From assembly GCA_951406725.2 (NCBI GenBank), contig OX597820.1, positions 96,968,001 through 97,032,000 on the forward strand: a stretch of 64,000 nt of DNA. Direction: 5' to 3'. The notes beneath the pieces were generated by a model that did not search any database, had not been told where the DNA came from, and saw only the letters and a program-made list of their open reading frames with translations. Source of the DNA: Octopus vulgaris (Eukaryota). The position numbers were made by a program, and so were the translations under genes. Of the stretch, positions 3,941-64,000 are shown one piece after another (positions within the stretch are counted from its first letter, which is position 1; each line of letters opens with the position of its first letter).

Positions 3941-5560
3941 TATTTCTTTAACCCTTTTGTTACCATATTTTTGTTGGAATACACTATATTTTTAGAACGA
4001 ATAATTTTGTCATTATTAAGTTGGTGTTTGGAACAATTTAGGATGAAATTTTGATGGAAGATTAATTATAGATCCCTTTAAAACAGTCTCTATCATATAA
4101 CCAAGGGTGTTCTTGAGCAATTTGGTATCAAAATAAAGTAATTCATTTCTGTGAATTTCTACGAAAACTTTGTCAGTTTAATGTGGAGTTTTGAAATGGA
4201 ATGTCAAATATGTTTCTTTATCAGTTTGATCCTTTATTATCTTCTCTCTGGGGCCCTATCAAGTTGAATAATTTATTAAAACTGAAATAGCAGCTGGAAT
4301 TAGTTTCTTTTTCTAAGTCAACAAAAATTTCATTATTTTGGCATCCATTTTTCTAGGCTCGTATATATGTAATATAATATCTGTATGTCCTGGTCTTGAA
4401 TCATGTTATCTCTAAATGGAAAATATTCTCAGATTTGGCTGCCATTACGTCTCACATTTTACTAAAATGTCTTATTAGCAGATTTCCCAATTTGCTTGAT
4501 TTTATTGTATTCTTTTATATATGGTTAAATGGCATCAAACTGGCAAAATTGTTTAATACAACGGACAAAATGCTTAGCAACATTTCTTCCTGCTTTACAT
4601 TCTGAGTTCAAATTCTGCTAAAGCCAACTTTGCATTTTGTCCTTTCAGGGTCAATAAAATCAAGAACCAATTGAACACAGGGGTTAACGATATCAACTAC
4701 CCGCTCCCCTCAGAATTGCTAGCTTTGTGCCAAAAATTTGAAACCGTCGTATCTGGTTGGATGTAGTTTGTTATTTGTAACTGAGTACTTATCATATCAC
4801 CTTAAATCCAAACATAGCTACCACCACATCATACTGACTGGCTCAGTTCTTCAGGAGCTGTGTGGTTAAGTTTGCTACCCAACCATGTGGTTTCAGATTC
4901 AGTCCCATTGAGTGGCACTTTGGGCAGGTATTTTTCTCCTATAACCCCAAAACTCTACTTGCGAAGACCTGTTGAGGCAAGTGAAATCGATTAAAATCAA
5001 TGGAAATAGTAATTGTGATACCTGTGCCGGTGGCACGTAAAAAGCACCAACTACACTCACGGAGTGGTTGGCATTAGGAAGAGCATCCAGCTGTAGAAAC
5101 ACTGCCAGATCTGGCTGAACCGTCCAACCCGTGCTAGCACGGAAAACGGATGTTAAACGATGATGATGATGAATTTGTTCAAAATAACTTTTCAAATATT
5201 GGTTTCAAATTTTGGCACAAGGCAAGCAATTTGGGGGAAGGGGTAAGTTGATTATATTGACCCCAATGATCAACTGGTACTTATTTTATCAACCTCTGAA
5301 AGGCAAAGTCGACCTTGGCAGAATTTGAATCCAGTGTGTAAAAATGGATGAAATGCTGCAAAGCATTCTACCAAACATGCTAACAATTCTGCCAGCTCGC
5401 TGCCTTTAACTTTTCAAATATTATTAAAAAAAAGAACATTAAGGGATTTTCATTTTTTTTTTATGTTTTTAAAACTTTGTATGAATGTGTTTTTTAAAAA
5501 AAATTTTTTATAATTAGTCATATATTTCAGAGATACCTTATTTATTTGTCTTTATTTTAG

Positions 5561-54149
<48,589 letters not shown>

Positions 54150-54192
54150 ATGATGCCTCAGAGACCAATGTAAGCAGTGTAAAATCTCTCAG

Positions 54193-54198
54193 AATAAA
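54193..54198 (+). terminator. Candidate proximal polyadenylation signal AATAAA
   Basis: AATAAA 43 nt after the exon 19a stop, followed by T/GT-rich sequence; AT-rich background lowers specificity. Confidence 0.45.
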
Positions 54199-57884: not shown

Positions 57885-58383
57885 CTGTTTTTGATGCCTA
57901 TTCAAACCAAAATCAAATTTCAATGACTGGCATCCATGCTAGTGGGGTGCAAAGAGCACCGTACGAGGGTGATCGTTGACAGAGTGGCTAACCGGCTTCC
58001 GTGCCAGTGGCACATAAAAGGGCACCATCCGGGCGTGATCGTTGCCAGAGCAGCCAACTGGCTCCGTGCTGGTGGCACGTAAAAGGGCACCATTCGAGCG
58101 TGATTGTTACCAACGTCGCCTTACTGGCACCTGTGCCGGTGGCATGTGTAAAAAGATTCAAGCGAGGTCATTGCCAGTACCGCCTGACTGGCCCCATGCC
58201 GGTGGCACGTAAAAAGCATCCACTACACTCTCGGAGTAGTTGGCGTTAGGAAGGGCATCCATCTGTAGAAATTCTGCCAGATCAAGATTGGAGCCTGGTG
58301 CAGCCATCTGGTTCGCCAGCCCTCAGTCAAAATCGTCCAACCCATGTTAGCATGGAAGGCGGACGTTAAACGATGATGATGAT
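57885..58383 (+). mobile_element. Family B SINE variant with four or five internal subrepeats
   Basis: Repeated gtgccggtggcacgtaaaa units plus the shared tail. Confidence 0.85.
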
Positions 58384-61717: not shown

Positions 61718-61972
61718 CCCACATGACAATGGGTGTTAGTTTGTTTACATCCCCTTAACTTAGCAGTTTGACAAAAGAGACCAATGGATTAAGTATCTTT
61801 CAAGGCAGTAGTCCAATGACTGAAAGATTGATAAAAACTATCTCTTATACTATAAGCTATTGTGAATGCTAACAATAATTTTGTTCAATAAATATTGAAA
61901 TGCATTTTTTTTTATCTGTTATTTGGTTTTATAATGTTTCTCTTTTTTCTTTTCTCTTTTTCCTTCCAACAG

Positions 61973-62014
61973 ACTGACCAACCACGACACTTACTGAAGA
62001 GCTACACACACTAA
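61973..62014 (+). CDS. GFPT: Candidate alternative distal terminal exon 19b of GFAT: TDQPRHLLKSYTH*
   Basis: About 32-nt polypyrimidine tract plus caacag acceptor; phase 0 matches the exon 18 donor; 7/13 residues identical to exon 19a in register. Confidence 0.82.
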   Translation, partial: TDQPRHLLKSYTH

Positions 62015-63881
62015 AGGCTTTAACAGAAATAAGCTTTTTTCTTTTTTTATCTTGTTAAAGGAACTCCTCCAACCTAACGTCTAGTAATTCTTGTTTGGCT
62101 TACTGCCCCATATATATATATATATGTATTTCAGATATGGACATATTATTTTTTGCTATGAGTTTACATCTAACCAGTTCTCAAATTTGGTAATTCATTA
62201 AACCTTGGAATTTATATTGTTTTTTTTTTTTTTTCTGTCGTTTAGAAGAAAAGGGAAGGATAGGAATTTATTATCATCAGTGTAGCTTTTGGATACAGAG
62301 CTTGATTTCTTTGGCTGTTATGTGGCTCACCGTTCTGTTGTGCAGATGTTTTCATACAATAGTAAAGTGGAAAAATTCTTTAACACTTTACTTGATTTCA
62401 GATGTCAAATGAATAAACTCGTTTTTCTGTTTCCAAACTTATGAAAATTCACTTGGAGATTGGACGTTAAACGCTGATGAGAAGCTCTTATAACGTTGGT
62501 CTTTATTTTTTTACCAGGTGAGAGTGTACATGGTTGCTTGATACCAGCCAAATCTCTGTTGTGTCACCAATGCAATGACGTGAAACACATTTTGACAGAT
62601 AAACATGAGACATGTAACCTTGTGTGTGGTCGCTTGACTTGCTAGAAATAGCAGTTAAATCTCCTTCAAATCCCACTACTGTCTTAAAGAAAGGACACAT
62701 TAGATAATGTAGTCCTACATGCTCTGTTTCAATAAAACATAGGTCACAACTAGAATGCCTTTTACCCACTGGCCTCCTTGACAAAGGTTGACTTGGGATG
62801 ACTAAACAACTGTCAAAGTCAAAATATATGGAAATGGTACATACTGTTGCTCATGGTATCCTATCAAGGGTTTTGTATTTTTTTTTTATTCATTCCTTTA
62901 TTACTTACCCACAAGCATAAAAATTGAAAAGGAAAAAAAAAAAACTTTTTTTTTTCCTCCCCTCAAAGTCTGATTTGGTTTCTACTCATATCTGAGTATG
63001 GTTTCCATATTCACATACATCTTATAAAATATGGTTCTGTAACTACAAATTTTTTTCCCTCATAGCTAATGGTGACCTCTTACTTTTCAAACGTGCGTTA
63101 ACTTTAAACCTATACACATCAATGTTTTCAGTACCTTTTAAATGTTTTTGTACCAAGAAATATAAATATATATAATGTGATTTAATTTAGGGGACCAAAG
63201 TGAATACATTAAATTACTAAGGCTTACCTTAGTTATTATACTGAATATATATACATATATATACCTTAAATTACTGTATACTATTTAATTTATTATTTTG
63301 GATGCAAAGTGGAGTTTGAATTAGTTACATACAATACATACAATCACATGTCTACATTGTCAACTGTTAAATATTTTTGTGTGTGGATAATTAATTTCTT
63401 TTGACTTATACTAAACTGTTGATAACTGCTTTCTGTTAACACTGTTTTATGGTTTATGTGTGTTTCTTTGTAACAGTTGGTTTTATTTAATTGTCTATAT
63501 TTGTTTTCTGTTGAAATTTTTATTTTTTATCGTGAATGTTGCTCCTTAACCTTCACAAACTTCAATCAAGTAAATTATTTACTCACACATATTTCCACAT
63601 GGGTCATATGACATATCTGCTAAAAATTCGGCTTCAATTTGATTTTGTTTTTTGTTTTTTTTTTATGTATCCCTCTGCCCATTTTATCAATCTATCATAG
63701 TTTCATTTCATGTAATTTGACTAAATTTGGAACCATACTTTTGTAAATAATTTCCTATATGAATTTGTGATGGTATAAAAAGCATACATTTACTATTGAG
63801 GATTTTTCTTTTATTTACAAAAAGAAAAGACAATTTCTATACGATTCCATCCTGAAGTACCGCAATGATCTATATATAACG

Positions 63882-63887
63882 AATAAA
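63882..63887 (+). terminator. Candidate distal polyadenylation signal AATAAA
   Basis: AATAAA followed by a T/GT-rich tract (tttcgttgtcttt) at the end of a largely repeat-free 1.9 kb region; other AATAAA at 62412 and 62731. Confidence 0.4.
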
Positions 63888-64000
63888 ATTTATTGATTGA
63901 AAATACTTTCGTTGTCTTTAACACTGTTTGAAGTATTCATCATGAAATGTTTAATCTTATCTTATGTTTGTCATACTGGGGCAACATCTTGAAGGGTAAG

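Follow-up and report, generated by a model that had tools for sequence, protein, structure and literature searches.

The GFAT gene of the window and its last exons

The window, i.e. the whole stretch of 64,000 nucleotides of Octopus vulgaris DNA that was analysed, holds one gene for GFAT, the enzyme with which the synthesis of amino sugars (for chitin and glycans) begins; its exons match the O. vulgaris proteins CAI9726014.1/15.1/16.1. Judged by its sequence, this gene carries, next to the exon for the canonical C-terminus (exon a, tail a), a second version of the normally invariant catalytic tail (exon b, tail b). The features are as follows.

5560..43825, + strand: upstream GFAT coding exons (glutaminase and isomerase domains), including an optional microexon; tblastn with P0040/P0043
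45080..45241, + strand: penultimate coding exon, 54 codons, phase 0 at both ends, common donor GAT/GTAAGC; one match in the genome
54105..54149, + strand: coding part of exon a, canonical C-tail plus stop, weak acceptor (rank 163/499)
54150..54175, + strand: UTR of 20 nt followed by a candidate donor AAT/GTAAGC (GT at 54170); from sequence
61935..61972, + strand: polypyrimidine tract and acceptor of exon b, the AG ending at 61972; from sequence, rank 1/499
61973..62014, + strand: coding part of exon b, phase 0, alternative C-tail TDQPRHLLKSYTH plus stop; from sequence, homologues and annotation
62015..63900, + strand: probable 3'UTR of the last exon, with AATAAA at 62412, 62731 and 63882; from a sequence scan and inference

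Exon b begins 7,824 nt beyond the coding part of exon a and is read in phase 0 after the penultimate exon, to whose donor at 45241 it is predicted to splice in phase. An earlier note on this DNA had called its acceptor very strong, which was borne out: by its polypyrimidine tract it ranked first among 499 YAG sites, the canonical acceptor being number 163. The phase given in that note proved correct, as did the identity of 7/13 residues between the two tails (21/42 bases) and the use of a different codon for 4 of the 7 shared residues. Among the 970 AG sites downstream of 45241, just the canonical exon (13/13) and exon b (7/13) showed more than four identities to the canonical tail; on the minus strand the best of 4,120 sites had 5. 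The final 67 residues of CAI9726014.1 (P0040) correspond to the penultimate exon followed by exon b. It is very probable that exon b gives rise to a real, translated isoform. A genome search returned a single match for the exon b stretch and likewise one for the penultimate exon, so that exon b as the end of a second GFAT gene was rejected.

The optional microexon of 27 nt (23633-23659) distinguishes isoforms of 687 and 678 residues; it lies in a loop region and recalls human GFPT1-L. Two versions of the penultimate exon, an LHIAE type and an FHIAV type, exist in other molluscs and in Ridgeia (variants were seen in P0046, P0051, P0061, P0082 and P0111-P0114), and both pair with both tails. A search of the window with related GFAT proteins did not reveal a second penultimate exon. 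The one at 45080-45241 is of the LHIAE type only, which suggests that the FHIAV type has apparently been lost in this octopus. By eye, intronic open frames at about 35700-36600 resemble the reverse transcriptase of a decayed non-LTR retrotransposon, and the intron between exons a and b contains a 65-nt tandem repeat (2.5 copies, 57951-58112) amid interspersed-repeat-like sequence.

Distribution and conservation of tail b

Tail b has one and the same sequence in O. vulgaris (P0040), O. sinensis (P0039), O. bimaculoides (P0002) and Argonauta (P0003), and RefSeq/GenBank already annotate it in the three Octopus species and Argonauta as an unnamed predicted isoform. The a and b isoforms are otherwise identical in 3/3 Octopus pairs; in this genus the alternative use of both exons is seen by annotation only. 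A search for the tail in relatives, as had been proposed, reached well beyond the cephalopods into molluscs and annelids, a wider range than was guessed. Homologues were found in gastropods (named proteins of Patella, Gigantopelta, Pomacea, Babylonia, Biomphalaria, Bulinus, Arion, Elysia and Plakobranchus), in bivalves (named proteins of Mercenaria, Dreissena, Mya, Pecten, Magallana and Mytilus), in the chiton Liolophura and in Ridgeia, an annelid with a mis-joined gene model that nonetheless has b at its end. The 402 proteins collected comprised 235 that end in a, 62 that end in b and 105 that end in neither (fragments and other ends). Other non-canonical tails, with different changes around the lysine and unrelated to tail b, were seen in the GFAT fragments P0321, P0330 and P0347.

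D, P, R, L, L and K are common to all 22 distinct b tails; the position of Val605 is occupied by Y or H and that of Thr606 by T, S or A in 22/22. The b-tail profile aligns to E. coli 1JXA and ends at residue 605. On this alignment the fixed changes therefore are Ala602>Leu and Val605>Tyr/His, Lys603 being retained and Glu608 not. The catalytic lysine, claimed for a second isoform, is thus found in 22/22 b tails, and the loss of the terminal glutamate could be confirmed. Of the substitutions read off the octopus tail, A>L and V>Y/H are shared by every b tail, while conservation is lacking for N>H and V>H.

In seven exon-b DNAs the identity by codon position was 0.72/0.77/0.44, the differences lying mostly at third positions, and every invariant residue of the tail was encoded by 2-5 codons. 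This free synonymous variation indicates that selection acts on the protein, and it bears out the earlier idea of a copied tail exon that diverged under such selection. That exon b is a decaying duplicate, or a conserved UTR element mis-called as coding by gene predictors, could be argued from its place in the 3'UTR of tail-a transcripts and from the named records with tail b, which are mostly predictions; this very improbable reading is already largely refuted by the conservation of the codon pattern over two phyla, by reading frames that are unbroken across the junction in intron-free contigs and by the existence of genes without any other tail.

None of 18 Haliotis proteins, of 10 proteins in a squid-like cluster and of 12 in a bivalve-like ENA/Logan cluster had tail b, which suggests that it may be rare or lost in some lineages. 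It was also absent from the few proteins of Capitella (1), Lingula (1) and Tubulanus (3), and from the few insect, tunicate, lamprey and fungal proteins examined, the sampling of both sets being incomplete. Among the best 150 HMMER matches, which are 50%-identity representatives where isoforms collapse and thus leave the range unbounded, an LLK tail occurred in 0/145 new proteins. The simplest reading of the sequences is one origin of tail b, before the split of molluscs and annelids.

Arrangement of exons a and b

A metagenome search with P0364 yielded 79 loci, and in 15 of these tail a directly follows penultimate-exon sequence. Exon b was also present in four of the 15 (L003, L005, L012 and L014), at 45, 14, 32 and 25 nt, respectively, from the stop of tail a, and with no AG before b. 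Genomic copies of b (L051 and L052) have a normal acceptor in front. This implies that the four contigs are products of a-to-b splicing. In quick trees (58 and 46 selected rows, the last 16 residues left out) 11 of the 15 tail-a loci were placed: 5 in a clade with Capitella and Ridgeia (support 99) and 6 outside it. Exon b came after tail a in 4/5 contigs of the annelid clade and in 0/6 outside that clade. The layout in which a is followed by b is shown for the annelid-clade records: in 4/5 intron-free contigs exon b lies within the 3'UTR of the canonical mRNA, so that both exons stand in one contig (annelid-clade contigs, not octopus RNA). Intron-free records from JGI and Logan contain reading frames that run directly from the penultimate exon into b, and within a single JGI cluster the same protein body occurs with either tail (b in P0119/P0360/P0363/P0364, a in P0361/P0362). 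In the annelid-clade gene both exons are used alternatively in spliced transcripts. The mutually exclusive last exons proposed in the earlier note did not hold for these relatives, in which the canonical exon is spliced onto b, and the switch is most likely the skipping of a canonical cassette. A further contig of the annelid clade, L011 (= P0143), carries tail a and 1.9 kb of UTR without exon b; it would be an a-only paralogue or reflect another poly(A) site.

In octopus the candidate donor 20 nt after the canonical stop has the same hexamer as the donor at 45241 and falls inside the range of 14-45 nt; for randomly drawn points, a GTAAG within about 50 nt was present 4% of the time. A cassette layout, in which exon a would extend over 54105-54169 and exon b would be the shared last exon, is likely for octopus, the use of the donor at 54169 being deduced by analogy with the annelid-clade transcripts. 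Exon b probably has a dual use, as coding sequence if exon a is skipped and as 3'UTR if exon a is included. Alternatively, the same isoforms could arise in octopus if a and b were true alternative last exons, selected by the poly(A) site that is used; this route can coexist with the cassette route. The AATAAA at 54193, a possible alternative end 24 nt past the candidate donor, is in line with this, as are more such signals between exons a and b, the 7.8 kb that separate them, the end of L011 without b and the statement, in the accessible text of PMC8373072, that homologous C-terminal swaps usually proceed via alternative poly(A). However, the a-then-b transcripts in 4/5 annelid-clade contigs, the consensus donor 20 nt past the octopus stop and the fact that b holds the strongest acceptor, as a constitutive exon would, argue against alternative last exons, which are regarded as rather doubtful.

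In the preferred cassette reading the last GFAT exon would have been duplicated in the mollusc-annelid ancestor. Of the two copies, the one upstream (exon a, with the canonical tail, its stop and 14-45 nt of UTR) would have become a cassette and the one downstream, b, the shared last exon. A stop that is close enough to the last junction escapes NMD (the 50-nt rule). Inclusion of exon a would thus give ordinary GFAT with b as 3'UTR and a stop near the last junction that evades NMD, and skipping of exon a would give the isoform with tail b (GFAT-b). The layout is also a warning, as expression of the exon-b region alone is no proof of tail b production.

Two genomic contigs, L051 and L052, span the region from the penultimate exon to the tail. 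The intron in front of b measures 1.5 kb in L051 and about 360 nt in L052, and neither intron contains an exon a, so that these genes have exon b only. Long branches lead to the b-ending proteins of Elysia/Plakobranchus (0.61), to that of a second chiton gene (0.84) and to three from Logan (0.43-0.97), the median end branch being 0.12; these Elysia, chiton and Logan paralogues are putative b-only genes. Outside the tail they alter 21-35 of 285 near-invariant columns, against 0-5 in other b-ending proteins, the count for the chiton being partly an artefact of N-terminal truncation. Rapid change is common in any gene duplicate. Five full-length diverged or unpaired b-ending Logan/Elysia types retain Cys2, Arg95, Trp96, His99, His108, Asn123, Gly124, Lys558, Glu561, His577 and the UDP-GlcNAc residues (human numbers). 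Of the glutaminase, sugar-binding, catalytic and UDP-GlcNAc residues listed in the available part of PMC7000685, those checked in the b-ending paralogues were unchanged apart from Thr98>Ser. Changes recur at Arg29, Arg33, Arg202, Ala260, His269, Met317, Leu405 and Gly646 (human numbers), and the residues altered can be read as those of inter-domain signalling; Ala260Ser is not b-specific, being present in the a-tailed P0143 and also in Bulinus. The changes per domain were roughly even (9/93 versus 16/192, 7/93 versus 14/192, 12/93 versus 23/192), with one case of 16/93 versus 15/192.

The Elysia orthologue of the two-tail snail gene is annotated with tail b only and is fast-evolving; a second heterobranch paralogue ends in a. 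A division of the two isoforms between genes is possible in heterobranchs (P0035, P0102, P0120 and P0121 versus P0112, P0113 and P0171). Two separate lineages of b-ending proteins (P0035, P0102, P0144) combine Arg33>Lys with loss of the PKA-motif arginine that precedes Ser205.

Possible properties of the enzyme with tail b

The octopus protein matches GFAT/GlmS (human GFAT-1, PDB 6R4E; E. coli 1JXA; EC 2.6.1.16) over its full length (E 0, 1018 bits) and shares every catalytic, substrate and feedback residue checked. An N-terminal Ntn glutaminase domain with Cys1 and the glutamine-binding residues is present, as are two SIS domains with Lys558, Glu561, His577 and Lys676 (human numbers). Isoform a has the canonical C-loop that lines the ammonia channel and isoform b does not: compared with GFAT/GlmS, tail b keeps Asp, Pro, Arg, Leu and the catalytic Lys, in octopus also Ser and Thr, but it has Leu at Ala602/675, Tyr or His at Val605/678 and no terminal Glu. 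In contrast to known GFAT/GlmS, the octopus gene has two C-loops that can replace one another, and no such variant is described for any of the 21 matched PDB sequences. AlphaFold gave a pLDDT below 50 over the tail of both isoforms (b: 634-677; a: 664-678).

According to the accessible parts of the structural literature, the C-loop covers the sugar site and provides Lys676 and Thr679, with Tyr32, Arg33, Tyr35 and Trp96 holding it; Thr679 acts in glutamine hydrolysis, Arg33 signals between the domains and the active sites are built from two subunits, His577 coming from the partner (PMC7000685). The ammonia channel forms between Trp and C-tail residues (PMC7948480, PMC10087520). In GFAT2, Trp93 contacts Leu675/Ala676/Arg33, and ammonia transfer amounts to only about 47-50% in the human GFATs versus 84% in GlmS (PMC7948480). 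Leu405 faces Glu681 (PMC8041777), and in Candida deletion of the last four residues disrupts the communication between the domains (PMC3224219).

The replacement of Ala602 by Leu and of Val605 by Tyr/His, together with the loss of the terminal Glu, would remodel the lid and the ammonia channel, most likely with less efficient ammonia transfer and weaker inter-domain coupling as a consequence, and GFAT-b would be a lower-output isoform for particular tissues or stages. Floquet reportedly found in 2007 that A602L and V605L partly suppress ammonia transfer in the E. coli enzyme. Because of this reported partial block upon enlargement of Ala602/Val605, a looser-coupled, lower-output synthase is favoured. 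The direction of the kinetic effect depends on these E. coli point mutants, and bulky residues could instead seal a leak. Glutamine-dependent GlcN6P synthesis and inhibition by UDP-GlcNAc are predicted for GFAT-b, the binding residues being present, and it presumably still binds UDP-GlcNAc. Tail b probably yields a retuned form of GFAT; a glutamine-dependent GlcN6P synthase with reduced coupling ranks first among the functional readings, with about an even chance of being right. The overall explanation, a duplicated last exon with a skippable cassette a and GFAT-b as a looser-coupled, lower-output, glutamine-using synthase, is considered slightly more probable than its opposite.

Second in rank, and quite unlikely, is a different enzyme with a plugged channel, i.e. 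a glutaminase activated by sugar, an isomerase or an enzyme that uses ammonia or deaminates. Both narrow-passage residues are larger in 22/22 tails, Arg33>Lys arises in Elysia and P0144, and the profile has weak matches (E 0.13-0.14) to the single-domain SIS proteins 2cb0/2dec, which are deaminases. However, the b-ending paralogues have preserved both active sites, Trp96 and the UDP-GlcNAc site, and change is about even across the domains, although a glutaminase-only variant is compatible with both points. The isomerase-only or ammonia-only enzyme suggested earlier is disfavoured, as the b-ending paralogues keep the glutaminase site; from the sequences an isomerase-only role of GFAT-b in particular seems disfavoured. 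GlmD and NagB-II (PDB 2CB0, 2DEC and 8EOL), single-domain SIS glucosamine-6-phosphate deaminases, resemble GFAT-b in the GlmS-type isomerase fold and a lysine-bearing C-tail freed from channel duty, but they are without the glutaminase domain that GFAT-b keeps intact and that is conserved in the b-enders, and the tail similarity is insignificant. It is unlikely that in molluscs and annelids the skip of one exon plugs the channel with both sites working, which would create a fructose-6-phosphate-gated glutaminase or ammonia source, or an enzyme for another amine or sugar phosphate, to which several lineages would have dedicated entire gene copies.

Slightly less probable again is a synthase of higher output, either more tightly coupled or regulated in another way, that would serve heavy production of chitin or mucus; the human transfer efficiency of 47-50%, compared with 84% in GlmS, leaves room for such an improvement (PMC7948480, as far as available). 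The b-only gene copies were retained and multiplied, and the PKA-motif Arg202 was lost in Elysia and P0144, both of which would fit such an enzyme. Against it, tail a dominates the transcript-derived squid-like and bivalve-like clusters, and the reported A602L/V605L results from E. coli point the opposite way. A near-inactive subunit that dampens mixed oligomers is improbable. The two-subunit active sites with His577 from the partner (PMC7000685, accessible part) and the last four residues being essential for coupling in Candida (PMC3224219, likewise) are compatible with it, yet its own Lys676 and glutaminase site would be needless and are kept in all b tails and paralogues; the purely dominant-negative role once suggested is weakened by the genes with exon b only.

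From bacteria to humans, the C-loop of GFAT is regarded as invariable, and tail b is a natural second version that two phyla have kept. With its fixed residues at two positions of the channel neck, it lends itself to testing how glutamine hydrolysis is coupled to sugar amination by the lid, and it suggests that hexosamine flux (chitin, mucus, O-GlcNAc) in molluscs and annelids is under a splice switch that has gone unrecognised. Full-text searches, without most subscription journals or supplements, found no description of an alternative GFAT tail, as the earlier note had supposed, although RefSeq/GenBank do list the unnamed isoform. What is new here, and unusual, is a C-terminal swap by a duplicated exon in a catalytic lid, with a last exon of dual use. 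Exons a and b are two homologous exons of the same phase in one gene, i.e. a tandem exon duplication. The C-terminal substitutions derived from such duplications (PRKCB, GNAO1 and FBLN1) likewise involve homologous duplicated exons, are ancient and conserved, and arise by alternative poly(A) or exon skips, according to the accessible text of PMC8373072, from the main text of which 'GFPT' is absent. Unlike the cases found there, the octopus swap concerns a core metabolic enzyme, whose catalytic lid and channel wall are exchanged, and its second exon copy would also serve as 3'UTR of the first isoform. Tissue-regulated splicing of GFAT is also described for human GFPT1-L (muscle exon 9; PMC10514471, available part), the octopus 27-nt microexon being at a comparable mid-protein position; GFPT1-L is an internal insertion, whereas exon b replaces the catalytic tail.
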